A stretch of DNA of 64,000 nt, from assembly GCA_949283125.1 (NCBI GenBank), contig CASDRK010000011.1:23363-87362 (forward strand). Direction: 5' to 3'. The DNA comes from an uncultured Clostridia bacterium (GTDB taxonomy: Bacteria; Bacillota; Clostridia; Christensenellales; Borkfalkiaceae). The position numbers and the translations under genes are program-made. The notes under the pieces were generated by a model that saw only the letters and a program-made list of their open reading frames with translations, was not told the DNA's origin and did not search any database. Each line of letters begins with the position of its first letter. The stretch's first letter is position 1. Positions 8,191 to 21,835 of the stretch are shown piece by piece.

Positions 8191-9497
8191 AAAGAAGCAT
8201 CAAAGCGCTTGCGGTACTCGTGCTCGCCGTGGGCGCTTTTTTCATATCGGGAGCATGGCTTTCGGGACTGCCGCGCGGCACTACGGTGGCCGGCGCGGAC
8301 GTGGGCGGAATGTCGCGCGCGGCGGCCGTCGCCGCCGCGCGCGTGCGCATACGCGAGAGACTTAAGGACAAAGAGCTGGTGATATGCGCCGGCGAACACA
8401 CCTATCGCTTCACGTATCCCGAATTTGATTTCACTGACGACCTGCCCGAGCTCGTCGCCTCCATACGCAGGCGCGGGGCATACTCTCCGCGCGTCTGCGT
8501 CAGGCTGAACGGCGCGCGGCGCATTGCCGAAAACATCTGCTCGCGGCTCGACCGCGCGTTGCGCGAACCCTGCGCCCGCTTTTTTAGGCAGGGTCTGCCG
8601 TTTGCGTACGACGAGGGCTGCGACGGGGCGCAAGGCGACCGCGCCGCGCTGCTGGCCGATATCCGCCGCTCGCTCAACGGCGACTTTAGCGCGGTGAAAG
8701 TCCGCGTCCGTCCGCTCGCGCGGAAAAAGTCGATCGGCGACGTAAAACGTGAAACGTCGCTGCTGTGTTCGTTCACCACCTATTTCGATGCGGACAACGC
8801 TCCGCGCGCGGCAAACATAGCGCTGGCCGCGTCAAAGCTGAACGGCAGCGTGCTGGAGCCCGGGCAGACCTTTTCCTTCAACGGCGCGGTCGGGCCGCGC
8901 ACCGAGGAGCGCGGCTTCGTCTCCGCAAAGATAATTTCGGGAGGGCGATTTACGGACGGCGTGGGCGGAGGGGTCTGTCAGGTCTCTACCACGCTCTACA
9001 ACGCCGCCCTGCTGTCGGGGCTGAAGATAGAGGAGTATCACCCCCATTCGCTCAGGGTGGGGTATGTGGCGCCCTCGCGCGACGCGATGGTCAGCGGAAC
9101 GAGCTGCGATCTCAAGTTTGCAAATTGCGGCCGTCTGCCCGTATATATCCGCGCCGAAGTCTGCGGCGGGGCCGTCACGTGCCGCATTTACGGCCTGCCG
9201 GACGGGGTGGAGAGGTCGTTCTTATCGCGCGTTACAGGCTCGCTGCCCCGCCCCGCCGACGTGGTGGAGGAGGGCGAGGAAGCCCTGCTTTCGCCGGGGT
9301 GCGAGGGTACTGTCAGCGAGGGCTATTTAGTGGAGGTCAAAGGCGGGGTGCGGCGCGAAAGGCTGGTGCGCAGGGACAGGTATGCCGGCGTCCCCGCCGT
9401 GCGGCGCGCGCCGCGCGGCGGGGACGCGCCGGCGGAAGACGGACAGTCCGGGCAAAAATCCCCTGGCGCCGCCGCCAAAAGTCAAGTAATTTTATAG
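8187..9497 (+). CDS. VanW-family protein (N-terminal membrane anchor); 3' end remodelled by the element insertion
   Basis: 436 aa. VanW-like core ..FSFNGAVGPRTEERGF...GGGVCQVSTTLYNAALLSGL.IEEYHPHS... TTG start overlaps the upstream stop. The last 7 codons come from the inserted element. Confidence 0.85.
   Translation: MKRSIKALAVLVLAVGAFFISGAWLSGLPRGTTVAGADVGGMSRAAAVAAARVRIRERLKDKELVICAGEHTYRFTYPEFDFTDDLPELVASIRRRGAYSPRVCVRLNGARRIAENICSRLDRALREPCARFFRQGLPFAYDEGCDGAQGDRAALLADIRRSLNGDFSAVKVRVRPLARKKSIGDVKRETSLLCSFTTYFDADNAPRAANIALAASKLNGSVLEPGQTFSFNGAVGPRTEERGFVSAKIISGGRFTDGVGGGVCQVSTTLYNAALLSGLKIEEYHPHSLRVGYVAPSRDAMVSGTSCDLKFANCGRLPVYIRAEVCGGAVTCRIYGLPDGVERSFLSRVTGSLPRPADVVEEGEEALLSPGCEGTVSEGYLVEVKGGVRRERLVRRDRYAGVPAVRRAPRGGDAPAEDGQSGQKSPGAAAKSQVIL
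9460..9477. repeat. Left copy of the 18-bp direct repeat CCCCTGGCGCCGCCGCCA (attL-like)
   Basis: Identical 18-mer at 21770-21787. It sits exactly at the GC-content break. Confidence 0.8.
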
Positions 9498-9578
9498 AAT
9501 TTTTTTAGAAATTCAAAAAAAATTTTTAGCTTGCGTTATAATCGGTATTGTATAAGTCTTTCGGGAAAGACTTATTAA

Positions 9579-9617
9579 CAAAAACGGGTACGACCTTACA
9601 GGGCATACCCGTTTTTA
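9579..9617. terminator. Bidirectional rho-independent terminator (AAAAACGGGTA...TACCCGTTTTT)
   Basis: 7-bp stem ACGGGTA/TACCCGT with an A-run upstream and a T-run downstream. It lies between vanW and the transposase gene. Confidence 0.55.
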
Positions 9618-9626
9618 TTACACGAC

Positions 9627-9648
9627 AAAAAGCCGCGCTTTGGCGGCT
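9627..9648 (-). terminator. Rho-independent terminator downstream of the transposase gene
   Basis: The minus strand reads AGCCGC-caaagc-GCGGCT followed by TTTTTG. Confidence 0.55.
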
Positions 9649-9658
9649 GTAAACATTT

Positions 9659-9676
9659 TTGAAAGTACACTTTCAA
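9659..9676. repeat. 18-bp palindrome TTGAAAGTACACTTTCAA, copy 1 of 3
   Basis: Perfect 8+8 inverted repeat with a 2-nt centre. The same motif recurs at 12809-12826 and 14678-14695. Confidence 0.9.
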
Positions 9677-9686
9677 AAAACTACTA

Positions 9687-10784
9687 TTAAAGAGAAGCAA
9701 CGGCAGTTGCGAACATTTCCGCAGAAGTGCCGAAGCCGAATATTTCACGAGGGTAAGCATTTACCCACCGCGCGACTTCCTGCACGCGCTTTTCGCTTAC
9801 CTTTGAAAAGTCCGTGCCTTTCGGGAGCAACCGCCTAATATCGCGGTTGATACGCTCGTTAGAGCCACGCTCGCACGAAGTGTACGGGTGACAGTAATAA
9901 ACCGCCGTACGTCTGCCGCTGTAAACGGAGCGTTCCAGCCCTGCGAAGTCCGAGAACTCCGAGCCGTTATCAACGGTAATGCTTTTGAACAGCGTACGAA
10001 ACTTTTTACCGTAACGCCGTTCGAGTTTATCAAGGTACTGCACGACCGTTGCCGCCTTTCGGTTCGGCATTTTCATGATAATTTCGTAGCGCGTCGCCCG
10101 CTCGGTCAACACCAAAAGCACGTTGCGGGTGTACTGCCGCCCGACAACGCAGTCCATTTCCCAATGCCCGAAATTACGGCGCAGGAGAATGTCGGCGGGA
10201 CGGCGTTCAATACTCGTACCCTTCGGCGGGCGTTTCGCCTGCGTTTTCTTGTAATGCTTTTTACGCTGTCCCACGGGCAAATGCTCGGAGCGGATATTCA
10301 TAAACAGCCCCTGCGCAATATAGCGGTACATTGTCGTTTTACTCACAACCGTTTTGCAGAGATTATCGCGCTTGATTTCACCCGCGACAGCGGCAGGGGA
10401 AATTTTATCAACGCAGACCCGCTTTTCAACGTAGCGTATAAAATCGTAGTCGTTGCCAACCTTTAAGGGCGCACCGTGTGCCGTTTTATTCAGCTGATAC
10501 TTTTCTTCCGCAACGTTCGAGCTGTAACCTTTTACAAACTTGTAATGCCGTTCGCCCCAATAGTCGGTATAACTGTACCGCTTGTATGTATATTCGCCGC
10601 GCTTCAATTCGTTATACACGGTCGCAAGGCATATGCCAAGCTGTTTTGCTATCTGTCGTTTGCTCAACCCTGCATTGTACAAAGCTTCCAACTGCAAACG
10701 CATATTCCAATCCACATTCTTCGTACCTTTGTTTTTCATTTCCGTTTGTTCCGTCCTTTTTTCCGTAGTGTCCGTAGTTTCCAT
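9687..10784 (-). CDS. IS30-family DDE transposase
   Basis: 365 aa. N-terminal HTH (..GLSKRQIAKQLGICLATVYNELKRG..) and the DDE triad context HWEMDCV ... ITVDNGSEF ... ERGSNERINRDIRR typical of IS30 transposases. Confidence 0.9.
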   Translation of the reverse strand: METTDTTEKRTEQTEMKNKGTKNVDWNMRLQLEALYNAGLSKRQIAKQLGICLATVYNELKRGEYTYKRYSYTDYWGERHYKFVKGYSSNVAEEKYQLNKTAHGAPLKVGNDYDFIRYVEKRVCVDKISPAAVAGEIKRDNLCKTVVSKTTMYRYIAQGLFMNIRSEHLPVGQRKKHYKKTQAKRPPKGTSIERRPADILLRRNFGHWEMDCVVGRQYTRNVLLVLTERATRYEIIMKMPNRKAATVVQYLDKLERRYGKKFRTLFKSITVDNGSEFSDFAGLERSVYSGRRTAVYYCHPYTSCERGSNERINRDIRRLLPKGTDFSKVSEKRVQEVARWVNAYPREIFGFGTSAEMFATAVASL

Positions 10785-10847
10785 AGTGTCCGATATGATA
10801 TTATACGCCGAAAAACGCCGCTAAAAACGCTTAAAATCGGCGTAGAG

Positions 10848-10917
10848 AGCACAACGCGCCACCTTGTTATAGACGAGCGGCGGCTTGCGCCGCCGTAACA
10901 AGGTGGCGCGTTGTGCT
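10848..10917. repeat. Nested perfect hairpin: 22-bp stem enclosing a 7-bp GC stem
   Basis: AGCACAACGCGCCACCTTGTTA (10848-10869) is the exact reverse complement of 10896-10917. The loop contains CGGCGGC-ttgc-GCCGCCG. Confidence 0.9.
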
Positions 10918-11114
10918 TGACCTGTTTTACCTGCCGTACGGGGCGATTTTTCGTGCCAACGGGGGCGCGGACAGGTCTCGCGCCCCCGTTTTATCGTCTT
11001 GCAAATGAACATTGCCGCATAAATGCGGCAAAAAAACACCCTGCGGGACATGCCGAAAAGCGCCGTATGTCAAGCCACAGGCGCAATAAAATGAACGATT
11101 GAGTTTTTACGCAA

Positions 11115-12245
11115 TCACGCAACCGACAAGGGGTTGCAGAGTAAGTCGGTAATCGACATTTGCTTGCTAAATCGGTGTCGCAGAATATCCCGCTCCCAAT
11201 TCACAACGTCGTCAAAGACAACGTATTTAAGCACAAAGTCGTTTGTCATCTCGGTTATAATGTCGTTTGCCGACAACTTCATGCAAATTTCCGTGGGTAT
11301 GCCACGGCTATAAACTATTCGTTCATTTGTCTTGCCTATGTATTTCAATATATAGTCCACGCTGTCGCCCGCTTCAAGTTGCGACTGCGTTATCTCCTCA
11401 AAATCGTTGCGCCCGTACCATTGCGCAAAGAAACTGTTTTCGTTCCTCGTCTGCATTTGCCCCTGCGCCGTGCTGTAATCGGTCTTTTCTTCGCACCTGC
11501 CGAGCATTTCACCCGCAGGGACATATAACAGACCGTGGAAGTGCAAACGCCCTGTTTCGGGCGCACGCTCGAATACCCCCATATACCGCCAGCCACGGCG
11601 GGTGTGGAGGTTTGAAAGGCAACGGCGCAATTTGCGCCTAAATGTTTCCTCGTCGTGCTTTTTATCGTCGTATGTAAAGGTTACGAAAAAATTCCAACGA
11701 TTGAGGTATGCCTTGCGGCGGAAACGCTTTTTGCGGTGGTGCAGATTGTTCAGCTTGCGCTTTACGCGCTCCGCAATATCCACCTTTGCGATCTCCTCTT
11801 CGGTAAACAGAGTGCGCAAGCCGTCATGGATATAGTCCGACATGGGCTTTTCCTTTTTCCTGTCGCGCAAGCCCTTATTATAGCCCTGCGTGAACAAATC
11901 GTCAAAGAGAATGTCAAAGACGGAGCGAGTGCCGCCAAAACCTTTATTCGACGATATATCAATGCGCATAGCGGCGGTGCGCTTGCCGCGCTCGTAGTCC
12001 CTGCGCTTATCGCGCATAAAGCGGTCATAAACGATTTCCTTTTGTTCGTCCGTAAGCTGTTTAGGACGTCTGCGGCGGTTAGATTTGCGGGCAGGCTTTA
12101 CCGCAGGGGCTTGCGCATGGCGGCAGGGCGTGGCTATCAGATGACGACCGTCATTATAGATTTTATAGGTTTTCGGCGTGTCGTCGAAAAAGGGAAATGG
12201 ACAACCCTGTAAGTCGTCCGATTGAATAAGATTTGCAACACCCAT
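11115..12245 (-). CDS. HUH-superfamily rolling-circle replication initiator (Rep)
   Basis: 376 aa. The three RCR motifs appear in order: FFVTFTYD (motif 1), RLHFHGLLYV (HUH, motif 2) and VDYILKYIGK (catalytic Tyr, motif 3). SD GAGGTGG upstream. Confidence 0.75.
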   Translation of the reverse strand: MGVANLIQSDDLQGCPFPFFDDTPKTYKIYNDGRHLIATPCRHAQAPAVKPARKSNRRRRPKQLTDEQKEIVYDRFMRDKRRDYERGKRTAAMRIDISSNKGFGGTRSVFDILFDDLFTQGYNKGLRDRKKEKPMSDYIHDGLRTLFTEEEIAKVDIAERVKRKLNNLHHRKKRFRRKAYLNRWNFFVTFTYDDKKHDEETFRRKLRRCLSNLHTRRGWRYMGVFERAPETGRLHFHGLLYVPAGEMLGRCEEKTDYSTAQGQMQTRNENSFFAQWYGRNDFEEITQSQLEAGDSVDYILKYIGKTNERIVYSRGIPTEICMKLSANDIITEMTNDFVLKYVVFDDVVNWERDILRHRFSKQMSITDLLCNPLSVA

Positions 12246-12327
12246 TTTACCACCTCAAAAATCAAATTTAATAAACACCGCCATGTGGAATAGCACCCCT
12301 GCGGGGAAATGTTATTAAGAAAAATAA

Positions 12328-12594
12328 TTATTTGCCTTGCCGCGCCCTACGTTCTGCCGCACAATCGCGCATAGCGCACATAAAGCCCTTTGCATATTGC
12401 ACACTGTTGCGCGCAGATTTACCCGACTGCGCAAGTCGCTTATTGTCGTCTATATCGCTCATCATCTCACGCTTACGCTTTTTGCTTGCCTTCGGGTACT
12501 CGCGGTACGCCTTAACACCGAAGCGGTAGCCATATGCAAATGGCGTTTTCTGTTCGCTGTTATATTTCAGTTTTTCATCTACCGAACGCTTCAT
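12328..12594 (-). CDS. Small basic hypothetical protein (88 aa)
   Basis: ORF translationally coupled (ATGA) to the upstream ORF. Lys/Arg-rich, with an N-terminal Y-x-S-E-Q-K..F-A-Y-G motif shared with two other element proteins. Confidence 0.5.
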   Translation of the reverse strand: MKRSVDEKLKYNSEQKTPFAYGYRFGVKAYREYPKASKKRKREMMSDIDDNKRLAQSGKSARNSVQYAKGFMCAMRDCAAERRARQGK

Positions 12595-12794
12595 ACCGCC
12601 ATAATCTCCCGTGCAACTTCTACGACCTCATCACCGCGAAGAGTAACACGGTAACGGTAGCCGCGAACCTTTACGCTGTGCGCCGTGTTGCCGTTATCAA
12701 GCGGAACGGAGCGCACAAGTTCTATATAGCGCCGCTGTGTCTGCACAGCACGCGCAAGCGTGCTTAAAAGGTGAAGGTATTGATATTGTGTCAT
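12591..12794 (-). CDS. Small hypothetical protein (67 aa from the internal ATG with SD AAAGGGGG)
   Basis: The ORF track gives 12591..12845. I prefer the ATG at 12794 because the 18-bp palindrome and the SD lie immediately upstream of it. Confidence 0.45.
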   Translation of the reverse strand: MTQYQYLHLLSTLARAVQTQRRYIELVRSVPLDNGNTAHSVKVRGYRYRVTLRGDEVVEVAREIMAV

Positions 12795-12808
12795 ATGTAA
12801 CCCCCTTT

Positions 12809-12826
12809 TTGAAAGTGTACTTTCAA
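12809..12826. repeat. 18-bp palindrome TTGAAAGTGTACTTTCAA, copy 2 of 3
   Basis: On the minus strand it is directly followed by AAAAGGGGGTTACATATG, the SD and start of the 67-aa ORF. Confidence 0.9.
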
Positions 12827-12833
12827 TTTTGAA

Positions 12834-12853
12834 TTGCAAAATCAATTTTGCAA
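12834..12853. promoter_or_regulatory. Second operator-like palindrome TTGCAAAAT-ca-ATTTTGCAA
   Basis: Perfect 9-bp arms. It lies between the 18-bp palindrome and a plus-strand consensus promoter. Confidence 0.6.
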
Positions 12854-12868
12854 ATAACCGAAAAATTG

Positions 12869-12897
12869 TTGACTTTATAGCCGCAAATACATATAAT
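12869..12897 (+). promoter_or_regulatory. Near-consensus sigma-A promoter TTGACT - 17 nt - TATAAT
   Basis: -35 at 12869-12874 and -10 at 12892-12897. It points away from all element ORFs, towards a terminator about 105 nt downstream. Confidence 0.55.
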
Positions 12898-12903
12898 ATC
12901 TAA

Positions 12904-13027
12904 CAGTGGTGAACGCTTCAAAGAACATTGAGGTACACCAAAGCACTGTATAATAAGTGATAGTAACTGCAAAACGGTCTATATGAAAAACAGTGGACAC
13001 AGCGGCAAAAGCCGCTGTTATTTTTTT
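12904..13027 (+). ncRNA. Candidate ~120-nt small RNA (promoter-to-terminator unit, no convincing ORF)
   Basis: Bounded by the consensus promoter and an intrinsic terminator. AACAGTGG occurs at both 12902-12909 and 12989-12996. The 3' end overlaps the stop region of the convergent 156-aa gene. Confidence 0.4.
12999..13027 (+). terminator. Rho-independent terminator ACAGCGGC-aaaa-GCCGCTGT plus TATTTTTTT
   Basis: 8-bp GC-rich stem followed by a T-run on the plus strand. Confidence 0.7.
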
Positions 13028-13488
13028 CTTAAAATATATTTAATTTTTGCCATATCATTATTAGACAAATGGGCAACATTAGTAATATATCTATCTACTT
13101 CATAAATTTCGGAACGGTCAATCCACGTACGCTTATTACTGATTTGCCGTTCATAATCATTATCAAGAATAATAGTCTTTGTAGTCCGCTTTTCAACGGG
13201 TGCAACAAGCACACGACCCTTTTTATCGGTATCAATAACGGCACAAACGCGAGGTTTAGAAATAGCGTTACCAAAATGATTATCATTTGTCATAATTAAA
13301 TCAGGGTCGTTAAATGAACGATTTTTAAGGCTATTTAAATATTCCAACCTACTTTCGGCATACTCTCTTCTACTTGCCGTCAAAACTTTACCGTCAGAAG
13401 TTTTACCCGTTTTAAGTATATTATTATAATGCTTAATCTTTTCATTAACTGAATAATAAACATAATTGGTCTTACCGTGTTTAAACAT
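13018..13488 (-). CDS. AT-rich cargo protein (156 aa); C-terminal ~95 aa resemble the MazF/PemK toxin fold by eye
   Basis: SD TGAGGTGG. ..DLIMTNDNHFGNAISKPRVCAVIDTDKKGRVLVAPV...WIDRSEIYEVDRYITNVAHLSNNDMAKIKYIL parallels EndoA/MazF ..GDVYFADL..GVRPVLVIQND...IVAAIT...ILLEQIRTIDKQRL.DKIGHLDDEMMDKVDEAL (from memory). It has the lowest GC in the element. Confidence 0.55.
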   Translation of the reverse strand: MFKHGKTNYVYYSVNEKIKHYNNILKTGKTSDGKVLTASRREYAESRLEYLNSLKNRSFNDPDLIMTNDNHFGNAISKPRVCAVIDTDKKGRVLVAPVEKRTTKTIILDNDYERQISNKRTWIDRSEIYEVDRYITNVAHLSNNDMAKIKYILRKK

Positions 13489-13605
13489 ATAACCACCTCA
13501 TTATTCTAATTTTAATGCCTGTCGGAGCTTTACCGCCCCGACAGGCTTTTATATATCACCCCTGCGGGGAGTAATACCCGTTCGGGAATGACCGTTAAAG
13601 AAAGA

Positions 13606-13851
13606 CTACTGCCCGTCTTTGGCGTTTTGTTTTGCCTTTAATTTTTCCCTTTTGCGCACCGCCCGTTGATACCGCTTGTCCTCGCGGTCAAGCCTGCGGA
13701 ACTGCCGTTTCATATTCTTGAATATGTACGCCAAAATCTTTTTGTTGTACTTTTCAGGCACAAAATCGGCGGTGTCGAGCGTTTGCGCAAAAGTGGCATA
13801 ATACGTTTCAAGGCAGGTGTTAATCAGCTTGTTTTTGTTGTAATTTATCAT
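13606..13851 (-). CDS. Small hypothetical protein (81 aa) with a basic C-terminus
   Basis: ORF start overlaps the stop of the Zot-like gene (ATGA coupling). Confidence 0.5.
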   Translation of the reverse strand: MINYNKNKLINTCLETYYATFAQTLDTADFVPEKYNKKILAYIFKNMKRQFRRLDREDKRYQRAVRKREKLKAKQNAKDGQ

Positions 13852-14666
13852 GCCGCTTTACCTCGCGTATAAAAGCCGTCGGGTAGTTCGTCGTCCATAG
13901 TCTGCAAATACCTTACATAGCCGTCTATCGTGCAGTCGTTCGGTTCGGCTTGCATATAATCGTAATCGCTGTGCAGATGACCGTCGTAAAACTTCGGCTT
14001 GCAATTTTGGCTGTCGTAACAGGCAAACACGTTGTAATCGGCTTTGACGACCTCTTCCGTGTAGCATTCCTTGTCCTTTTTGCCGCTCTGCATATAGCGG
14101 TCAAAAAGACTACTGTTATCTATGCGGCGTATCAGCCATTTAAGAGCTTTAACGCGCCCGTAGCCGTCGTATTTGAATTGCAGGTTTACAATCTCAATGA
14201 ACTGCGCAAGCTCGCGCACGTTCACGTCTATGAGCATAGGACGTTGAGTATCGAGAAACACGTCTAAATCTAAATGCCCGTGTTGCTCGTACCAACGCGA
14301 TTGCCAATCGGGAAAATAGCGCGACATACGGCTGTTAAGATATTTTTGCGCTTCGGTTATACAGATACACTCGTGCGGCAAATTGAAATGCGTTTTTACA
14401 AAATCGTTTGCATAACCTAAACGGTAGGGATTTATGCGGCGGGAAAGTCGAGGACTATACCCGAATTTGTGCATTACAATATCGTAATTTGCCGATACGC
14501 AATGCATGGGCACGGTCTGTATGCCGTCAAAGCCCTGTTGCATTTTCGCCAATATTTCCCGCCGCATAGCGGTATTCCGTTGTTTGTCAAACGCCGCCAT
14601 GCTTGCTATATGCGTTAAAAAACAGGTCTTGCCCGTTCGCGGCGGGGCAAATATTATCGTTATCAT
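13848..14666 (-). CDS. Zot-like (inovirus pI-type) P-loop NTPase without a transmembrane segment
   Basis: 272 aa. Walker A FAPPRTGKT and Walker B-like ICITEAQKY, then ..EQHGHLDLDVFLDTQRPMLIDVNVRELAQ.., which mirrors the Zot-family HRH.G.D(I/V)..(I/L)TQ...(I/L)D core. Confidence 0.7.
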   Translation of the reverse strand: MITIIFAPPRTGKTCFLTHIASMAAFDKQRNTAMRREILAKMQQGFDGIQTVPMHCVSANYDIVMHKFGYSPRLSRRINPYRLGYANDFVKTHFNLPHECICITEAQKYLNSRMSRYFPDWQSRWYEQHGHLDLDVFLDTQRPMLIDVNVRELAQFIEIVNLQFKYDGYGRVKALKWLIRRIDNSSLFDRYMQSGKKDKECYTEEVVKADYNVFACYDSQNCKPKFYDGHLHSDYDYMQAEPNDCTIDGYVRYLQTMDDELPDGFYTRGKAA

Positions 14667-14677
14667 AAACCGCCTTT

Positions 14678-14695
14678 TTGAAAGTGCACTTTCAA
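14678..14695. repeat. 18-bp palindrome TTGAAAGTGCACTTTCAA, copy 3 of 3
   Basis: On the minus strand it is directly followed by AAAAGGCGGTTTATG, the SD and start of the Zot-like gene. It abuts the stop of the 707-aa gene. Confidence 0.9.
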
Positions 14696-14696
14696 T

Positions 14697-16820
14697 TTAT
14701 CCGCCCGCAATGAGCGAATAGCACCAGCCCGCAAACGTGTTTATAAAGAACACGTCAAGGACTATCGTCAAGGCGAGGAACAAAAGCATTATCCACCAAG
14801 GCAGACCGCAAGCGGTACACAGCACAAGGCGAAGGAGCAACAGCACAACTATTTCCGCAAGCACAACAATCACATACGCCCACCAAGGAATATCGCTATC
14901 AATATCGACGGACGGGGTGATTGCATTGACAATGTCAATGGGCGAAGATACGGCGGGGATAACGTAATATTTGCCGTCGTCATTAAATGTCAGCTGTATC
15001 ACGTCAAAGTCCAAAAATACGCTCTCCCAAGCGCGGTAGGCTTGCCCGCTTATTTTGGTATCTCCGCCTAAAAAGCCTGTGCCAAGTTCCCAAATCTCAA
15101 CGGGAGCAGAATAGTAGTCAGTTGTTGCGAAGTGGAACAGCACGACAACTTTTTCTTCGTCGTCGGGTATGGACGTATCAACGGTAATTGCTTCGTCGTA
15201 ATAATCGCGCAGAGCCTGTACATCACCCGAATTTATCAAGAGCCGTTCGCTCACCTCTGCCGAAGTGCCTTTCAAATCGTCCTCTTCAATTATCTCAATG
15301 GGCGCGACCGTGCGGCTCTCTTCTTCGGGAATATCGCCAAAAATAGTGTCCCAAAGTCCCCAATTCCGCAAATTGTCCCAAAAGTCGGGGGCAGTTTCCT
15401 GCCAGCTCGAAAGGTGTTGCAAGTCTAAATCTGCGTCGAAATCGTAATAGCTGTAACCTTGCTGTATCTTGCCGTATTTGCTGTCAACCTTGCGGTAATC
15501 GTCTATGTCGGCGGCGAACAAATCAGCGCTGATAGTGCCGTCTTTAATAGGGAGCGCACCGCCGTCATAACTTTTATCATAGTTTTTTATGTACTCGTAC
15601 AGTTGATTGCTCTCAACACCGCCAATGCTGACGATATCGGCGTATGGATCGTATTCCGCGATATTATCTACCTGAAAAAGATAATATAAAGCATTTGCGC
15701 GAGGGGAAAGATAAGTATGATAAATATTCCACCCCCATGTTGCACCTTGAATACCAACACCCATACCGCTTGAATAAAAATCTTGAATAAGAGAATATCC
15801 AATATCTTTATTAATTTCAGGAACGCCCAAAGAACTTAATTGAGTATTAGTCTGTTCACCAAGCCAAGACTTTGCCGCAGAAAAAAACTTATCGTTGCTC
15901 GTTACGATTATATCTTTGGTCTTGTATTCGTACCATTCGGCTTTAATGCGTTGCAGTTCGCCGTAGGTATCGAACAGGCGTTTCGGCACAGCAAAATACA
16001 CACTATCAAGCTGATTTTGATAACCTGCGCCCTTGCTCGAAGTTTCGGAGCGGTAAAAGGTATGTCTTACGTCAAGTTCCACGGCTTCGGCTTGTCCCGT
16101 GCTCAAACAGGTAAACGGAAATTTTTCACTGTCGCCGTAGCCCTCGGCATAGCCGCTGAACTGATAATACTTGTTCACAAGGTATTCATGCGCGTTTGTC
16201 GCACTTCCACCTATCTCGAACAACTCAATGCCCGATATGTGGTAATATCTGTTGCCCGTCTTTTGCTCGTGCTCGCGCTCGGCATTGAGTATGATATTTT
16301 CTTCGTCCACAATGCGGAATTTCAAGAAGAGATTTGCATACTCGCCGCCGCTTGAATTGCAAAATTTAAGACTGAATTTTTGGTAGTCCTTGACGTCACC
16401 CACATTGCCTTGTTCGTTATCGTAATAAAAATCAGTGGAAATCTGAATTTTATTTTGTTTCAAAAATACGGCATAATCCAAAAGAGCAGGATTATACACA
16501 TAAACGTACAGCGCATAATTGCCGAAGCCGTTTTCATACTGCGAATAACAATACTCAACAAAAGTTATCATTCGTGTAGTTCCGTGCGCGTTCTTTGGAT
16601 AATCAGCTATATCAAACGGCTCGCCGTCTATGGTGGAGCTTTGCAAATCGTCAAGGGCGTTGGTGTCGTCATACTTCAATTCTTTGCCAGTGTCGGCATA
16701 AACATAGGGGTCGGAAACTTGTCCGCAAATTATACTCGACAATAAACATAAGATGACAATTATATACGGCAAGAACGTTCGCATTTTTGCTTTAAACTTT
16801 TTCATTAAAATTGCACGCAT
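14697..16820 (-). CDS. Large secreted protein with C-terminal multi-helix membrane anchor (candidate adsorption/minor virion protein)
   Basis: 707 aa. N-terminal signal-like segment (..FLPYIIVILCLLSSIICGQ..) and a C-terminal ~65 aa hydrophobic region (..WWAYVIVVLAEIVVLLLL...WWIMLLFLALTIVLDVFFI..). SD AAGGTGAGG. It sits just upstream of the Zot-like gene, as gIII/gVI do in inoviruses. Confidence 0.6.
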   Translation of the reverse strand: MRAILMKKFKAKMRTFLPYIIVILCLLSSIICGQVSDPYVYADTGKELKYDDTNALDDLQSSTIDGEPFDIADYPKNAHGTTRMITFVEYCYSQYENGFGNYALYVYVYNPALLDYAVFLKQNKIQISTDFYYDNEQGNVGDVKDYQKFSLKFCNSSGGEYANLFLKFRIVDEENIILNAEREHEQKTGNRYYHISGIELFEIGGSATNAHEYLVNKYYQFSGYAEGYGDSEKFPFTCLSTGQAEAVELDVRHTFYRSETSSKGAGYQNQLDSVYFAVPKRLFDTYGELQRIKAEWYEYKTKDIIVTSNDKFFSAAKSWLGEQTNTQLSSLGVPEINKDIGYSLIQDFYSSGMGVGIQGATWGWNIYHTYLSPRANALYYLFQVDNIAEYDPYADIVSIGGVESNQLYEYIKNYDKSYDGGALPIKDGTISADLFAADIDDYRKVDSKYGKIQQGYSYYDFDADLDLQHLSSWQETAPDFWDNLRNWGLWDTIFGDIPEEESRTVAPIEIIEEDDLKGTSAEVSERLLINSGDVQALRDYYDEAITVDTSIPDDEEKVVVLFHFATTDYYSAPVEIWELGTGFLGGDTKISGQAYRAWESVFLDFDVIQLTFNDDGKYYVIPAVSSPIDIVNAITPSVDIDSDIPWWAYVIVVLAEIVVLLLLRLVLCTACGLPWWIMLLFLALTIVLDVFFINTFAGWCYSLIAGG

Positions 16821-16839
16821 AACCTCACCTTAATACTAC

Positions 16840-17421
16840 TCAAAAGAAAAGGTTAGAAGGTGTTACTGAAAAATCATAAACCATAAACCAAAGATTTACC
16901 GAGCTCTTATCAGATGTTATGGATATTCCAAAATAGCGATAACTGTCGTTTGAATTATCTACAATCTCAATATCACCGCCATATTTTTGCTCGACGAGAG
17001 TTTCAACCGAAAAATCAAACGGTATATAAAGTTCAAACCCGTCAGCATTACGCTTAATATCAAAATATTGAGTGTAATCATTCAAACTATCAACGTCACC
17101 ATAAAACCAATAAAGTTCGTCATTATATTTAAACGTAAAATCATTGGCGGGATTGGATGTGATGGTAACAGAATAATTTACATCATTCCCGATAAGCGAT
17201 TTAACAGAAAAATTACCTTTCTTACCTCTAACTAATTGAATATTGCCGTCTTCGGTATTCGAATAATAACGCTCTCCGTTATACTCAACATAAAACGTTA
17301 CACCGCTTTCGCGCAGAGCGAAATATGCTATGCCAACGGCAATACCCAAAATAACAAGCGCCACAACCAAATACAACAATATCTTTCCAAAAACACTGGC
17401 TACACCGCTACGATCGCCCAT
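16840..17421 (-). CDS. Membrane-anchored protein (193 aa), beta-rich ectodomain
   Basis: N-terminal TM ..ILLYLVVALVILGIAVGIAYFAL.. and SD GAGGTG. Confidence 0.55.
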   Translation of the reverse strand: MGDRSGVASVFGKILLYLVVALVILGIAVGIAYFALRESGVTFYVEYNGERYYSNTEDGNIQLVRGKKGNFSVKSLIGNDVNYSVTITSNPANDFTFKYNDELYWFYGDVDSLNDYTQYFDIKRNADGFELYIPFDFSVETLVEQKYGGDIEIVDNSNDSYRYFGISITSDKSSVNLWFMVYDFSVTPSNLFF

Positions 17422-17435
17422 AAATTCACCTCAAA

Positions 17436-18674
17436 TCAAAAGATTATAGTATCCTTATTCAAGCTAACGTTTGTAACAGGCACGATAAACGAAGATACAC
17501 CTGATACATCTGTCAGATATATATACTTCGTCTCCGAAAATTTCTCCGAAGTATCTTCATTAGTCACGTTAACGCTTATTTTGAAAAACGCCGTCTCCTC
17601 AAACCCTTCTACAATGCGACTATCTGTAAAAAGTTCGCGGACTTCTTCCAATACTGCTTTTTTCTGCGTAGCGCTAAGCGAAGAAATGCCGCCGACGCAA
17701 TACTTTGATACAAAATCTTCAAACGATGTGTTGAAGGTACAGATGCGGTTATAATAGGTATCATAGGTAGGGTAGGTGTTTTCATTGACAGCGCCGGTGG
17801 AGTCGATATAATTGCCGCCGGAAATCAACCAACCGTGACCATAGCTCAACTCTCTTTCATCATACCCCACGCCGTAATCGTCGCACATACTCGAGAAGTC
17901 TACTTCGTATTGCGTTGATACATTTACTGATATAGCGGGAACAATTGTGCCGGCAGAACGAAAAACCTGATAAGAAATAGAGCTATCCGCCCCCGTATCT
18001 TTAAGGACTATGTCAGAACCGTTAATAACCACATCGGTTATTTTGCAACGATAATCTATGCGGCATGTATCGGTAATGGAAGGATTATTGACGGAAGATA
18101 CCGTAAGAGTGATAGGACAACCGAAAGCCTGACTGCATGATACCGTACAAGATAAGGTATCACTTGAAGGGCTTATCTGTATAAAATCCGCTTCGGTCAC
18201 GCCGATACCTGCAAGCTCGGACGTAGCATAATCGCCGTCACCGTCATTGTACCAAGCTTCTTCCGTATAATACGGATTGCCGTCTTCATTCTCGGCGGTC
18301 TCATTCCACGAAACAGACCATACCAAATCCTTAATGGTCGCTTCTTCGGGATTGACCGTTGCCGTGACGACTTGCGCATTCTCCGCCATAGGCGATATAC
18401 CGTATTCGGCATATTTCTCCACAGGAATATTCATGCTCGTAAGCGCAATCGCGCCGCCCGGCTGACTTTCGCCTATCACCATGCTGCCCTCGTCAACAGG
18501 CTGTTTGCCTTCTGCGGACTGTTCAATCTGTTCGCCTTTGCCCCAACTGTTAAACCATGTGGCAATATCGCTGTTCGTGAACCAGCTCGAACCTACGCCA
18601 CACGCAATCACAATAGCGAGCGCAAGCACGATTGCAATAACCGCAACTATGGCGTTCTTTGTTGATTTTCTCAT
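17436..18674 (-). CDS. Membrane-anchored protein (412 aa), large ectodomain
   Basis: N-terminal TM ..AIVAVIAIVLALAIVIACGV.. and SD AAGGAG. No recognisable family. Confidence 0.6.
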   Translation of the reverse strand: MRKSTKNAIVAVIAIVLALAIVIACGVGSSWFTNSDIATWFNSWGKGEQIEQSAEGKQPVDEGSMVIGESQPGGAIALTSMNIPVEKYAEYGISPMAENAQVVTATVNPEEATIKDLVWSVSWNETAENEDGNPYYTEEAWYNDGDGDYATSELAGIGVTEADFIQISPSSDTLSCTVSCSQAFGCPITLTVSSVNNPSITDTCRIDYRCKITDVVINGSDIVLKDTGADSSISYQVFRSAGTIVPAISVNVSTQYEVDFSSMCDDYGVGYDERELSYGHGWLISGGNYIDSTGAVNENTYPTYDTYYNRICTFNTSFEDFVSKYCVGGISSLSATQKKAVLEEVRELFTDSRIVEGFEETAFFKISVNVTNEDTSEKFSETKYIYLTDVSGVSSFIVPVTNVSLNKDTIIF

Positions 18675-18696
18675 TATTGTTTATCTCCTTGAAAAT

Positions 18697-18894
18697 TTAA
18701 TATTTTTTAGCTTTTTTACAGAGTAAAGCATACTCATAATCGTGGTGTTCTTTCATTGCACGTTCAACGGCTTTTAAATCACCGCGCCGTGCCGCCGTGT
18801 CTAACTTCTGTTCACTACGCTCGTACATACCCTGCAACTTCGCCGCAGAGGTAGTACGGGCAAGCTTCTTTTGTTTTCGCGTGAACCAAATCAT
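18697..18894 (-). CDS. Small hypothetical protein (65 aa)
   Basis: ORF in the co-oriented array; charged and helical-looking. Confidence 0.4.
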   Translation of the reverse strand: MIWFTRKQKKLARTTSAAKLQGMYERSEQKLDTAARRGDLKAVERAMKEHHDYEYALLCKKAKKY

Positions 18895-18896
18895 AG

Positions 18897-19217
18897 TTAA
18901 AACTTCACCGACTTGCTACGCATAGAACGGCGAACGCCTTTATTTTCATACGAACGAATTGTATTACGAACATAGCCGCGCGCTTCGTTCTTATATAAAT
19001 CGGCAAGCGTATCGCGCGCGGACTGATAACCGTATGTAACATCAACACACCCCGAACCCATACCGCGATAACCCTTACCGTCCTTACGGCGTTTACCTGT
19101 CAACTGTACCTGATACCCACCGTATGCGCCCGAAACCCGTAATTCATTGCCCGTGCGTAAGCAATATTTTTCGTTCAGCCTATCGACTTCGGCTTGTAAA
19201 TCTCTTTTTGTAATCAT
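18897..19217 (-). CDS. Small hypothetical protein (106 aa)
   Basis: SD GAGGTG 6 nt upstream of the ATG. Confidence 0.5.
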   Translation of the reverse strand: MITKRDLQAEVDRLNEKYCLRTGNELRVSGAYGGYQVQLTGKRRKDGKGYRGMGSGCVDVTYGYQSARDTLADLYKNEARGYVRNTIRSYENKGVRRSMRSKSVKF

Positions 19218-19226
19218 AACAACACC

Positions 19227-19469
19227 TCAACATTTCAGTTTGCCGACCACAACGCCGTTCCCGTCCACGACAAGGCACATATCGCCTTTGCCGCTTGTCT
19301 TTTTCTTCCTACCTGTCGCCTTGCCGCAGACGGAGTTCACGCCGTTGCGGAAAGACTGTTTGCTTTTGCTATCGGGACAATTTACGCGCTTGCCCGCTTT
19401 TGCCGCGGCATACGCACGCCCCATATGGTACGCTTTGCGCTCTTTGGCTGAATAACTTCTCTTTGCCAT
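19227..19469 (-). CDS. Small basic hypothetical protein (80 aa from MAKRSYSAKERKAY..)
   Basis: The ORF track gives 19227..19487. The ATG at 19469 avoids overlap with the upstream ORF. It carries the Y-S-x-K-E-R-K-A-Y-x-x-G motif. Confidence 0.45.
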   Translation of the reverse strand: MAKRSYSAKERKAYHMGRAYAAAKAGKRVNCPDSKSKQSFRNGVNSVCGKATGRKKKTSGKGDMCLVVDGNGVVVGKLKC

Positions 19470-19474
19470 ATGAA

Positions 19475-19684
19475 TTAAACCTCGCAATTTTTTATTTTTT
19501 GTTTTACTTCGTCATAGCTTTCGGCTGCAAATATGCCCGTGCCTTTGCCCTTTTCGTCAAGCCCCGTTTCCACAAATGTTCCGTCTTTGTCCTCAATCAC
19601 GCCCGTTACAATTCGTACAGGTACCATACACCGTTCACGCGCCTTGTTGTTACTCCACATTGTAAGTTCCAAAAACCCTTTCAT
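19475..19684 (-). CDS. Small hypothetical protein (69 aa)
   Basis: SD GAGGTG upstream. Confidence 0.45.
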   Translation of the reverse strand: MKGFLELTMWSNNKARERCMVPVRIVTGVIEDKDGTFVETGLDEKGKGTGIFAAESYDEVKQKIKNCEV

Positions 19685-19717
19685 TTTTTACACCTCGTTT
19701 CCTTATTGTCCTTATTT

Positions 19718-19750
19718 AACACCCTTGCAGAGAGCAACACCCTTACAGGG
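19718..19750. repeat. Two 13-bp direct repeats AACACCCTT(G/A)CAG with 18-bp period
   Basis: Copies at 19718-19730 and 19736-19748, in the spacer upstream of the 69-aa ORF. Confidence 0.8.
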
Positions 19751-19830
19751 AATTTTACTGTTAAGAAATGATATATAGCCGTCTGCCCGCCTGCGGAGTT
19801 TTCCACAGACGGGTTGACGGTATCTATCTT

Positions 19831-20298
19831 TTATGCCGCCGTTTCGGGGTCTGCCTCAACGGTACGTATCTGTTTATTGACCATATTCATAAGCATAGTG
19901 AGCAGGTCGACGTCGCTTTTGCCCGTCGGCTTGACTTCGGCGTGCCATACAACGCCGTTTTCGTCTACGGTGTTGACTGTGTAAACGGTGGTATGCTGTT
20001 TCTTGCCGTTGAACTCCGTTACCTTGTCGATAATATCGAGTTCGGCGGCGGGGCTTACGTCAAAGACCAAATCGAGAGGGACATAACCGCCCTTATCCTT
20101 CGGCGAGAAATCAACAGCAATACGACGACCGCGCAATGTGCCGCAGAGCTTATACTTAAAGTAAAGTCTGCCGTCATTCGTCACGTACTGATTGCCGCGC
20201 TTATCGAGCACGGGTTCACGGCGTATTACAAAATTGCCGTTCCTCATTTCCGCTACCTGTTCCATAGTTCCGTTCGTTGCCTTCTTTTCAGTTGCCAT
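19831..20298 (-). CDS. Hypothetical protein (155 aa), beta-rich; possible ssDNA-binding role is speculative
   Basis: SD AAAGGAG. No motif recognised. Confidence 0.5.
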   Translation of the reverse strand: MATEKKATNGTMEQVAEMRNGNFVIRREPVLDKRGNQYVTNDGRLYFKYKLCGTLRGRRIAVDFSPKDKGGYVPLDLVFDVSPAAELDIIDKVTEFNGKKQHTTVYTVNTVDENGVVWHAEVKPTGKSDVDLLTMLMNMVNKQIRTVEADPETAA

Positions 20299-20501
20299 AA
20301 TTTTAATAATCTCCTTTGGCAGTCGGTTGCCAGCCGTCCGATTTTTGCCCCCTTACGGGGAGTGGTGGGGACTGCAAGACGCCACCCTTGCACGAACGCT
20401 TGCCGCGCTCCTTTGGGCTATGTCCCCATAATGGCGGGGTGCAGAGGTCACCCCGCTTTACAGGAGGAATGCCCGATTGCTCGGGCTATGGAAAGCCGTC
20501 T
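20299..20501 (-). other. 200-nt GC-rich, highly structured non-coding spacer
   Basis: Several stems, for example GCGGGGTG-cagagg-TCACCCCGC (about 20433-20456), GCCCGA-ttgc-TCGGGC (20471-20486) and CCCCCTTACGGGG (20348-20360). No plausible ORF. Confidence 0.6.
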
Positions 20502-20741
20502 TTATTCTGTCGCCGCTTCAAGATTTTCAATAGCTTCACTAAGGCTATCAAGGGCATAGTCCATATTATTTATGTTATCGCCCGCAATTTCGCCGCGTTC
20601 GCTTTCCTGTATGCCCGCGGGCATATTATCGTAATATTCCTGTTCTTCGTCGCGCAACTGCTCAATGGCAGTTTGTATATCTTGTAACTGTTCAATCAGT
20701 TTGTAAAGTTCATTACGCCGTGTTTTATTCATTTTCGCCAC
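20502..20741 (-). CDS. Small acidic coiled-coil protein (79 aa)
   Basis: SD AAAGGACGGTGG. Heptad-like ..ELYKLIEQLQDIQTAIEQLRDEEQEYYD... Confidence 0.5.
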   Translation of the reverse strand: MAKMNKTRRNELYKLIEQLQDIQTAIEQLRDEEQEYYDNMPAGIQESERGEIAGDNINNMDYALDSLSEAIENLEAATE

Positions 20742-20747
20742 CGTCCT

Positions 20748-21371
20748 TTATTCTTCCTCAACCATAGGAGCATTGCAGTCCATACACATAATGTTTACGC
20801 GCTTTGTCGCCCTGACCGATTGCCCGCATATGGGGCAAATATACTTGCGCGTGCTCGTGTTCTTCGTTATCTGACATTTCATAACGGGTAAGCGATAAAT
20901 GACCGTAGGCGGGTTTGCCGCCGCAAATTCGGCTATCATTGCCGCCGTTTCGTCCGTCAATGTCGTATGCGACCAGCCGATTTTTGCCACGCACTCAACC
21001 TTTAAGCCATGTTCTTCGGCTATCTTCTTGAATAGCTTGTTGTGGTAGTTACCCGACCGCGACGTGTCTTTCATTTCGTGAACCGTCGCAAACTGATGGC
21101 ACATTTCGTGTATCAGTGTTGCCGATATCTCACCAATAGGGCGGTGAAGCTGCTGTGCCGTCATATTCAGTTCGTGTTCGCCGTCGTCGTCGGTGTTTTC
21201 ACGCCAAACTTTGCCCTGCGACCACCAGCCATTTGTTTTATTGCGCTCGTCCGTCTGCACAGTGATTACAGGCTTTACAAGCTCCCCGCCGAACAGTTCG
21301 GCGTTTATATGGTCGTATAACTTGCCGAGATATGCGACCGTCTCAATGTACTTGTCCGTTCCGTTTAACAT
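20748..21371 (-). CDS. SprT-like zinc metalloprotease with C-terminal zinc ribbon
   Basis: 207 aa. HEMCH (HExxH) is embedded in ..ISATLIHEMCHQF.. and the C-terminus has CPICG...CMDCN. Confidence 0.7.
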   Translation of the reverse strand: MLNGTDKYIETVAYLGKLYDHINAELFGGELVKPVITVQTDERNKTNGWWSQGKVWRENTDDDGEHELNMTAQQLHRPIGEISATLIHEMCHQFATVHEMKDTSRSGNYHNKLFKKIAEEHGLKVECVAKIGWSHTTLTDETAAMIAEFAAANPPTVIYRLPVMKCQITKNTSTRKYICPICGQSVRATKRVNIMCMDCNAPMVEEE

Positions 21372-21437
21372 TGTTTCGATACCTCACTTTTGTTTATTTG
21401 CCCGTATAGCCGTTAGCACAGCTTTTAATTAAATTGC

Positions 21438-21668
21438 TTAACGACAAACTACTCTCAAATACTCTTTCGCGTCGTCAATACTCTCATGCTCGACAATGTC
21501 ATAATCAGGGGCTTGAATAGTGATAACATTATTCTCAAACCCAGATTGAACCTCAAGCAATAAATTTGCTTTAAGTAAATCTGCCGCAACTCCGAAGAAT
21601 GCAAGAATTTTACCGTTGTCGTCCACAGCTACACGCACATTTGTGTTCCTGTTAATTTTAAATTTCAT
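21438..21668 (-). CDS. Small hypothetical protein (76 aa), first ORF at the right end of the element
   Basis: SD AAAGGAG upstream. Confidence 0.45.
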   Translation of the reverse strand: MKFKINRNTNVRVAVDDNGKILAFFGVAADLLKANLLLEVQSGFENNVITIQAPDYDIVEHESIDDAKEYLRVVCR

Positions 21669-21713
21669 TTCCGTTTCTCCTTTGCGTAATGCCGCCGCCC
21701 GTATTAGAACAAT

Positions 21714-21753
21714 AAAAAAACGGTATAGAGCAGTTCCTTTACTGTTCTATACC
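21714..21753 (-). terminator. Hairpin plus T7 run on the minus strand at the right end of the element
   Basis: The minus strand reads GGTATAGAACAGT-aaagga-ACTGCTCTATACC followed by GTTTTTTT (one mismatch in a 13-bp stem). Confidence 0.5.
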
Positions 21754-21769
21754 ATTGTAAAACTATACC

Positions 21770-21787
21770 CCCCTGGCGCCGCCGCCA
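21770..21787. repeat. Right copy of the 18-bp direct repeat CCCCTGGCGCCGCCGCCA (attR-like)
   Basis: Identical to 9460-9477. Confidence 0.8.
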
Positions 21788-21806: not shown

Positions 21807-21835
21807 TTGTCTTTTGGCGTGTTATATGATATAAT
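21807..21835 (+). promoter_or_regulatory. Candidate sigma-A promoter for plsX (TTGTCT - 17 nt - TATAAT)
   Basis: -35 at 21807-21812 and -10 at 21830-21835, about 85 nt upstream of plsX. Confidence 0.5.

Follow-up and report, generated by a model that had tools for sequence, protein, structure and literature searches.

A probable inovirus-like prophage with an IS30-family transposase, inserted upstream of the plsX promoter in a Candidatus Coproplasma genome

Insertion sequences of the IS30 family typically duplicate 2-3 bp of their target, and the junction form of IS30 has its ends abutted 2 bp apart. Junction promoters are known for the circles of insertion sequences such as IS911. This article describes an element of 12,295 bp whose last gene encodes a transposase of the IS30 family. 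The element occupies positions 9475-21769, the contig region between the two copies of a flanking repeat, in a 64-kb stretch of contig CASDRK010000011.1 from an uncultured Clostridia bacterium; this whole stretch is called the window. It is probably a small inovirus-like prophage of a Candidatus Coproplasma host, integrated by transposition through its own IS30-family DDE transposase.

IS30-family elements move via circles or tandem dimers with abutted ends, according to Kiss and Olasz as cited in PMC3942029. Long duplications of 19-26 bp have been described for one member of the family, IS1630 of Mycoplasma fermentans (PMC2853133).

Transposases of this kind can also be found in phages. The tailed temperate Faecalibacterium phage FP_Lagaffe has a 48-kb double-stranded DNA genome and an IS30-type integrase; the direct repeats at its ends came as a surprise to its authors (PMC5883640). 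IS3- or IS30-family transposases are encoded by small filamentous-class Plectroviridae of the genus Vespertiliovirus, the SpV1-type phages of Spiroplasma (PMC6668415, PMC13595969). Whether the transposases of inoviruses are selfish or domesticated cannot be told from sequence alone (Roux et al., PMC6813254).

A recent preprint (bioRxiv 10.64898/2026.07.08.737213) describes an 'Unknown MGE' (mobile genetic element) of about 15 kb in the mouse Pumilibacteraceae genome MGBC157735. An IS30-type gene lies at its edge, and one of its proteins is of the inovirus gp2 type. The MGE is flanked by 15-bp repeats, lies in the 3' end of a gene and is enriched in virus-like particles. Its authors looked for repeats the size of an insertion sequence and stated that they were unable to determine the mobilisation mechanism.

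Promoter targeting is known from a different group of enzymes. The Mutator-like DDE transposases of TnGBS conjugative elements and of ISLre2/ISKra4 insertion sequences insert in one orientation upstream of sigma-A promoters, with a constant spacing to the -35 box (PMC3942029). TnGBS-type elements pass through a circular intermediate; they integrate 15-17 bp away from the -35 box and duplicate 8-9 bp. The same authors termed promoter targeting atypical among prokaryotic transposable elements and proposed a contact with the polymerase initiation complex.

The insertion, its duplicated target and the joined ends

The boundaries of the element and the host features next to them are as follows.

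8187-9497, plus strand: vanW, truncated host gene (Pfam VanW, 2.9e-47)
9460-9474: left copy of the 15-bp target-site duplication, CCCCTGGCGCCGCCG; single copy in the empty sites L002-L007
9475-9499, minus strand: transposase-side terminal inverted repeat (minus strand ...TTCTATAAAATTACTTGACTTTTGG-3'); terminus conserved in >25 relatives
21745-21769, minus strand: gene-start-side terminal inverted repeat (minus strand 5'-GGTATAGTTTTACAATGGTATAGAA), with a TACAAT -10 hexamer at 21755-21760
21770-21784: right copy of the target-site duplication, the same 15 bp as the left copy
21807-21835, plus strand: targeted plsX promoter, TTGTCT-N17-(TG)a-TATAAT (10/12 in the scan, extended -10)
21920-22954, plus strand: host plsX, intact (Pfam FA_synthesis, 6.9e-98)

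A preliminary description of this DNA had proposed that the element is bounded by an 18-bp direct repeat, CCCCTGGCGCCGCCGCCA, at 9460-9477 and 21770-21787. This 18-mer occurs exactly twice in the window, and a search that allowed up to 3 mismatches gave no further copy there. The abrupt change of composition claimed for these positions is also seen, with a guanine-plus-cytosine fraction of 0.56-0.66 outside and 0.40-0.50 between the copies. As duplicated host DNA, 15 of the 18 bases stand. The last three do not: the CCA at 9475-9477 is the terminal trinucleotide of the phage (minus strand ...TTTTGG), which matches the host CCA at 21785-21787 by chance.

Evidence for the insertion can be provided by the unoccupied site. 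An exact-protein look-up of PlsX located one occupied contig and six independent, unoccupied metagenome contigs of the same species (L002-L007). The empty-site junction had been predicted as ...AAAAATCCCC[T/G]GGCGCCGCCGCCATATTGGGCGGCC..., and the six contigs align as ...GGGCAAAAATCCCC[T/G]GGCGCCGCCGCCATATTGGGCGGCC... They match the occupied site base for base and hold a single copy of the duplicated 15 bp; therefore, the insertion is real and precise.

The left copy of the repeat lies within the last codons of vanW, as first described. In the empty sites vanW continues directly into the upstream region of plsX and encodes 445 residues, with the C-terminus ...PGAAAILGGQNNCLLACYMI (also given as ...AAAILGGQNNCLLACYMI). 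This bears out the earlier expectation that excision would restore a different VanW C-terminus reaching into the plsX promoter region; the restored tail is the longer one. The VanW of the occupied site has 436 residues, with six phage-derived codons (KSQVIL*) in place of the last 15 native codons.

Relatives of the element were sought by scanning one-genome-per-species contigs and metagenomes. The scans gave 160 loci, mostly from metagenome-assembled genomes (MAGs) of Christensenellales and other Clostridia. Wherever a single contig covered the two ends of an IS30-bearing element, repeats were searched for between the two flanks. Flanking direct repeats were found in 16 independent insertions (the window, L030, L031, L034, L035, L051, L052, L055, L065, L069, L070, L072, L118, L135, L192 and L199), and every one is different in sequence. 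Examples are CCACATTAAACGCCCGCG, GCGAAAAAGCCTGCA, CTTAATCTATTAAAT, CCGCTATGCAGTTTG and TTAACAGTATGGCTC. Together with the 15-bp repeat of the related element in bioRxiv 10.64898/2026.07.08.737213, this makes 17 insertions with unrelated repeats. The repeat of that preprint, GCGTATATGTGGACA, is absent from all fetched loci.

The maximal identity between flanks is 15-19 bp, and mostly 15 bp (range 14-16) once the conserved terminal nucleotides are assigned to the phage. Two insertions from the clade of the window element, L192 and L199, have exactly 15 bp duplicated and identical termini. Because the flanking repeats differ at each insertion, they are target-site duplications and not an attachment (att) core. 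At one further locus, L043, a run of N stands exactly at a duplicated phage terminus.

The termini of the phages are conserved: the gene-start end reads (N)GTAAAGTTTTA... and the transposase end ...CTTGACTTTT(CA/CG/GG). Imperfect inverted repeats of about 25 bp form the two ends of the element as a whole, and 17-24 of 40 terminal positions match between them. Two blocks are common to both ends, one at the tip, TG(T/A)AAAGT, and a second about 18 nucleotides inward. Between clades the inner block changes in step at both ends (TATAGAA, ATAGCAAA, TATCGAA). At one and the same insertion site the terminus reads ...TTTTGT in L114 and ...TTTTGG in L199, L200 and L201, so the element is polymorphic at its second terminal nucleotide.

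Three contigs of relatives contain a head-to-tail junction of the two ends. These are L021, with a terminal overlap of 762 bp and a unit of 11,835 bp; L022, from another sample; and L121, with an overlap of 43 bp. The junctions read CTTGACTTTT-GGGCG-GTAAAG and CTTGACTTTT-CAAAC-GTAAAG, or generally CTTGACTTTT-N5-GTAAAG. The termini are thus 2 bp apart, ...TTTT(GG/CA)-NN-(G/C)GTAAAG. A 15- or 18-bp core is lacking from them, which excludes an att core. For the window element, transposition would correspondingly predict joined ends of the form CTTGACTTTTGG-NN-GGTATAGTTTTACAATGG, without the 15- or 18-mer.

Joined in this way, the ends read TTGACT-N17-TAnAAT. The sequence is composed of TTGACT and 5 nucleotides, the 2-bp spacer, and a TACAAT, TATAAT or TAGAAT hexamer that starts 10 nucleotides in. 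In the window, the outward-facing TTGACT -35 hexamer is at 9480-9485, in the transposase-side terminal repeat. In the integrated window element, the sequence at the place of a -35 box for TACAAT is GCGGCG (2/6 matches), which belongs to the duplication, so the predicted promoter at the head of the phage operon exists only in the joined form.

Position relative to sigma-A promoters

In most reconstructed empty sites the host flank beside the gene-start end is similar; in the direction leading away from the phage, it has the sequence of a canonical sigma-A promoter. At plsX the -35 hexamer is at 21807-21812 and the -10 hexamer at 21830-21835, with the -35 starting 37 nucleotides from the phage end.

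The regularity was scored by taking the best match to TTGACA-N17-TATAAT within 110 nucleotides of the phage terminus. Fourteen of the 17 scored junctions have a match of 8-12/12 that starts 37-38 nucleotides from the terminus and fires away from the phage. The spacer of the matched promoters is always 17 nucleotides, and a TG-extended -10 is common. Once L034 and L192, which were read by eye, are included, the 37-38 nucleotide rule fits 16 of 19 junctions. Two of the remaining three have a promoter 10-11 nucleotides closer, or one helical turn, and one is ambiguous. A match of at least 9/12 at the same offset has a background frequency of 0.24% (0.0024) in the host DNA of the same loci, which gives a binomial P of about 2e-31.

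Firm support exists for the insertion, for the duplicated target, for the termini and for this promoter regularity. As a statistical regularity, the target is a position relative to a sigma-A promoter and not a sequence core, an uncommon kind of target for a phage. The nearer cut falls 21-22 bp upstream of the -35 hexamer and the farther cut 15 bp beyond it, at roughly -57 and -72 from the start site. Judged by these distances, the predicted cut position is the upstream edge of the promoter-polymerase complex.

Targeting of terminators or hairpins, as in IS1630, was considered separately, as hairpins are present at some targets (the window, L031). It was rejected: the position of the cut relative to the hairpin is inconsistent, whereas the distance to the promoter is constant.

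The gene-start end always faces the promoter; therefore, the genes of phage and host point away from each other, and the host promoter is left whole. Since the phage always diverges from the targeted promoter and most host genes run with replication, its genes come to lie head-on. A head-on orientation had been noted before, and it is consistent with dnaA at 4818-6167 and with the plus-strand host genes.

Just left of the insertion is an origin-proximal set of genes, namely dnaA (4818-6167, minus strand), a RecF-like SMC_N gene and a PHP-domain gene. The distance from dnaA to the insertion is about 3.5 kb. Because these genes adjoin the insertion, the prophage is placed about 3.5 kb from the likely replication origin, which is a high-copy position. 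The host DnaA falls in a 90% cluster with that of Candidatus Coproplasma avicola (Christensenellales).

Genes of the element, rival explanations and a possible mechanism

Within its boundaries the element has the following features.

9631-9648, minus strand: terminator-like hairpin 3' of the transposase gene (sequence scan)
9687-10784, minus strand: IS30-family DDE transposase, last gene of the element (NF033563, PHROG 4646, Pfam rve and HTH_38)
10785-11114, minus strand: structured intergenic region between Rep and transposase, 330 bp, with a perfect 22-bp compound hairpin at 10848-10917
11115-12245, minus strand: rolling-circle initiator Rep, HUH motif HFH, Y motif YILKYIGK (PF23343, PHROG 3419)
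12328-13851, minus strand: small open reading frames (ORFs) of 88, 84, 156 and 81 codons, without assigned function
13848-14666, minus strand: Zot-like (pI-type) P-loop morphogenesis ATPase (PHROG 197)
14697-18674, minus strand: three membrane-anchored proteins of 707, 193 and 412 residues (signal or transmembrane segments, Kyte-Doolittle at least 3.0)
18697-21668, minus strand: early/accessory genes, for basic proteins of 65, 106, 86 and 69 residues and for proteins of 155 residues, 79 residues (PHROG 4068), SprT-like and 76 residues
20748-21371, minus strand: SprT-like zinc metalloprotease

Read along the minus strand from 21769 to 9475, the order is the 76-residue protein, the SprT-like protease, small basic proteins, the 155-residue protein and the membrane proteins of 412, 193 and 707 residues. 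The Zot-like ATPase, four small ORFs, the HUH Rep, the 330-bp spacer and the IS30-family transposase follow. The preliminary description had counted more than 20 uniformly minus-strand ORFs, nearly all with strong Shine-Dalgarno sites. All credible ORFs are indeed on the minus strand; they number 18-19, and a recognisable site (GGAG, GAGGT or AAGGA) is present in 13 of 18.

The transposase ORF has 365 codons, or 350 (9687-10739) from the start preferred by the gene caller, M16. It scores 228 bits against NCBIfam NF033563, where the curated cut-off is 80, which places it in the IS30 family; the match to PHROG 4646 is 1e-108. Rep matches Pfam PF23343 (REP_ORF2-G2P) at 4.3e-11, with 43.4 bits and a cut-off of 27.8. 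As single-stranded DNA, the intergenic region 10785-11114 folds at -93 kcal/mol (z = -8.25 against shuffled sequence), and its 22-bp compound hairpin is kept in 12 relatives with compensatory changes. This region may serve a single-stranded genome as its origin or packaging signal. Separately, the hairpin loop GCTTGCGCCGCCG (10884-10902) resembles the flanking repeat and was considered as a mimic of a phage attachment site (attP). It was rejected, as the repeat is host DNA and differs from site to site.

The Zot-like ATPase matches PHROG 197 at 1.1e-8 over residues 1-219, a weak profile match, and reaches 16.5 bits against Pfam Zot, under the cut-off of 20.3. A circular genome of 9.8 kb, classified in Inoviridae, has an annotated Zot to which it is 29.5% identical (tblastn, E = 8e-20). 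Homologues number more than 800 in gut Clostridia. The three membrane-anchored proteins vary among relatives and have no family matches in Pfam or PHROG profile searches; they are presumed to be virion or adsorption proteins.

Other observations concern the small ORFs and the regions between genes. The 156-residue protein (13018-13488, minus strand) has a sub-threshold PemK/MazF-like toxin match (E = 0.0015), and no obvious antitoxin partner for it was identified. On the plus strand, an AT-rich, gene-free gap at 12846-13017 contains a strong promoter match, TTGACT-N17-TATAAT (11/12, at 12869-12897), and a terminator-like hairpin with a T-run follows at 12999-13018. Together (12869-13018) these would yield an RNA of about 120 nucleotides antisense to the phage operon.

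A perfect 18-bp palindrome, TTGAAAGT(G/A)(T/C)ACTTTCAA, occurs three times: 3' of the transposase gene (9659-9676), near the 84-residue ORF (12809-12826) and just upstream of the Zot-like gene (14678-14695). It recurs 3' of the transposase and 3' of the 155-residue gene in the relatives L031, L043 and L072. No T-run follows it in the phage sense, and it may be an operator for some regulator.

The IS30-type gene is present in a subset of the Zot-family loci, where it invariably follows Rep and closes the gene order. More than 25 elements have it at this terminal position, with identities of 48-93%. Other Zot-family loci have a tyrosine integrase and a LexA-like repressor in place of it; therefore, the integration module is exchangeable within the phage family. 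For instance, L038 (Pumilibacteraceae MGBC157735, 2121-4376), with 75% Zot identity, encodes at its opposite end a tyrosine integrase together with a LexA/S24-type repressor. In L028 (3058-3525 and 15498-15899), a relative with 88% Zot identity, the rve-type transposase is another one (HTH_32/rve_3), and an IS200/IS605-type Y1 transposase gene stands on either side of it.

Circular genomes of 9-10 kb with the same Zot-Rep-transposase order are deposited as Inoviridae. The order is also that of bajarodino virus 13, a sister record of the 9.8-kb genome. An IMG/VR copy gave no matches when it was scanned with Rep, the Zot alignment and the junction pattern. Scanned with the transposase alone, it gave seven small viral contigs without other shared genes. 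The small IMG/VR contigs L014, L015, L018 and L020 (5.7-10.3 kb) have only the IS30-type transposase in common, at 43-48% identity, and have a TTGACA-N17/18-TA...T match at most 100 nucleotides 3' of its gene. A layout of transposase followed by promoter may be widespread in small phages.

Taken by its size of 12.3 kb, its genes on one strand, its G2P-type HUH Rep and its structured intergenic region, the element has an inovirus-type genome. Alternatively, it may be a non-viral transposon, an integrative plasmid or a phage satellite, which uses rolling-circle replication and the Zot-like ATPase without a virion of its own. Such an origin would agree with the lack of an identified coat protein, with the lack of a family assignment for most genes and with the absence of the Zot family from the IMG/VR copy searched. 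Satellite status has also been proposed, in a preprint, for another Zot-bearing element. Even so, it is unlikely: size, single-direction gene order, G2P-type Rep, a Zot-like ATPase beside large membrane proteins and the structured spacer together follow the inovirus plan, genomes of the same order are deposited as Inoviridae, and a related element is enriched in virus-like-particle DNA (preprint).

A second alternative grants the prophage or integrative plasmid but makes the IS30-type gene an ordinary insertion sequence at its edge, integration having taken another route. Selfish and domesticated transposases look alike in sequence (Roux et al., PMC6813254), and the related mouse element received a 'partial IS30' call from ISEScan (bioRxiv 10.64898/2026.07.08.737213). 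The anatomy of the element makes this very improbable. The duplication flanks the entire 12.3 kb and not the transposase gene alone, the inverted repeats are at the ends of the element and co-vary, and over 25 diverged elements keep the gene in synteny, after Rep. No second transposase copy was found in the window, and family profile searches of the element genes gave no tyrosine or serine recombinase as an alternative integrase. From these properties it follows that the transposase belongs to the phage. In the present lineage, element anatomy thus separates a domesticated from a selfish transposase.

Conservative site-specific integration, with the 18-mer as attP/attB core and a tyrosine or serine recombinase or host XerCD as enzyme, as in CTXphi, would account for a direct repeat of 18 bp without mismatch that coincides with the compositional boundaries, for the tyrosine integrase and LexA-like repressor of some Zot-family relatives (L038) and for the site-specific recombination to which the preprint ascribed its 15-bp repeats, but it is barely credible given an element without a recombinase of either family, wholly different repeats in 17 insertions of close relatives with near-identical termini, 5 nucleotides at the expected core position in the junction contigs of relatives with 92% Zot identity (L021/L022) and an 18-mer unlike a dif site.

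Several points weigh against an inovirus-like prophage integrated by promoter-guided transposition. Some concern the joined ends: the junction contigs belong to relatives and not to the window element, and may represent tandem copies instead of circles. Their 2-bp spacer is at odds with a 15-bp duplication under the standard copy-out-paste-in scheme, and IS30 elements typically duplicate much less than 15 bp, namely 2-3 bp. Three loci (L059, L063, L119) have recognisable termini at both ends and no flanking direct repeat; recombination between copies, tandem arrays or mis-assembly of MAGs are possible reasons.

Others concern the promoters and the virion. All targeted promoters are sequence predictions, and their pattern was found post hoc and tested on the same data, although no reasonable correction alters the conclusion on promoter targeting. 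For the major coat protein, no minus-strand ORF of 28-110 codons with a hydrophobic 19-mer and a ribosome-binding site was found. The AlphaFold model of the Zot-like ATPase, built on a 16-sequence alignment, has a predicted local distance difference test (pLDDT) score of 39.9 and is unusable. Because of the missing coat protein and the unusable model, the term filamentous phage is drawn from the gene plan; the Zot assignment itself rests on weak profile matches, so a filamentous type is only suggested.

If the element is a prophage integrated by its transposase, the following mechanism can be proposed. The transposase would act on the two imperfect terminal inverted repeats of about 25 bp and produce a circular or tandem double-stranded form, in which the repeats stand head to head, 2 bp apart, like the minicircle junction of IS30. 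It would then join the ends to a target cut with a 15-bp stagger, and repair of the stagger would leave the flanking duplication. The abutted ends would form a promoter that heads the phage operon, in which all genes run in one direction, and integration would split this promoter. Splitting could silence the prophage without a dedicated repressor, and circle formation would switch the operon on. Rep, the hairpin-rich intergenic region and the Zot-like ATPase would next bring about rolling-circle replication and extrusion.

Promoters could be recognised by a sigma-region-4-like helix-turn-helix of the transposase reading TTGAC, or through contact with promoter-bound RNA polymerase. The kind of virion, the obligatory passage through a circle, the switch by a split promoter and the mode of promoter recognition are inferred. 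A tentative proposal, of less than even probability, is that the IS30-type phage integrase reads active sigma-A promoters, measures a fixed distance and makes a 15-bp staggered cut, so that integration serves both as a safe harbour and as a lysogeny switch.

Comparison with known systems

IS30-type phage integrases, long duplications by IS30-type elements and promoter targeting (TnGBS) each have precedent. In the open-access literature, no report was found of their combination, or of a promoter rule for an IS30-type enzyme or a phage.

The element shares with IS30-family insertion sequences the transposase family, the terminal inverted repeats of about 25 bp and, in its relatives, the 2-bp abutted junction. 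It differs from them in carrying about 11 kb of phage genes and in having a fixed duplication of 15 bp, not one of 2-3 bp or of variable length. Its target is a position upstream of promoters, and not a palindromic hot spot or an inverted repeat.

The transposase of FP_Lagaffe is 45.6% identical to that of the element, and this prophage, too, is flanked by direct repeats (PMC5883640). It differs in being a tailed double-stranded DNA phage of 48 kb. Directly 3' of its integrase gene (L197, 2240-2275) is CTTGACTTTTCC...TAATAT, that is, the CTTGACTTTT terminus with a -10-like hexamer. By sequence, this terminus and predicted junction-promoter layout is the same as in the filamentous-type family.

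The genus Vespertiliovirus is said to be without Rep, to replicate by transposition and to have Mollicutes as hosts, whereas the element has a G2P-type HUH Rep and a Clostridia host.

The 'Unknown MGE' of MGBC157735 is alike in its gut Christensenellales-type host, its IS30-type edge gene, its 15-bp repeats and its site in the 3' end of a gene. It is a probable relative, with kinship judged by description, as its sequence is not among the analysed loci. The GTDB genome of that host (L038) carries the relative with the tyrosine integrase instead. For the element left unexplained by the 2026 preprint, a mechanism is now supplied.

Like the TnGBS/ISLre2-type elements, the present element is oriented at a constant spacing from sigma-A promoters, in 16 of 19 junctions. 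The superfamilies are unrelated, however: here the enzyme is of the IS30 family, the duplication is 15 bp and the distance is 37 nucleotides, or 21-22 bp beyond the duplication. TnGBS/ISLre2-type elements are, moreover, conjugative elements or insertion sequences and not phages.

A second, unrelated transposase family that targets promoters would allow recognition of DNA and of RNA polymerase to be compared with TnGBS. If the proposal is true, promoter-guided integration by transposition would here be described in a phage for the first time, and promoter targeting would have arisen independently a third time among bacterial DDE transposases. In gut Clostridia that are hard to engineer, a compact enzyme could be a tool if it places about 12 kb beside promoters without destroying them. 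The family also points to a gap in virus prediction, being abundant in gut metagenomes (>800 Zot homologues) and absent from the IMG/VR copy searched. The question raised by the inovirus survey (PMC6813254), whether such a transposase is a passenger or an integrase of the phage, can be answered for the present lineage: it is the phage's own integrase.

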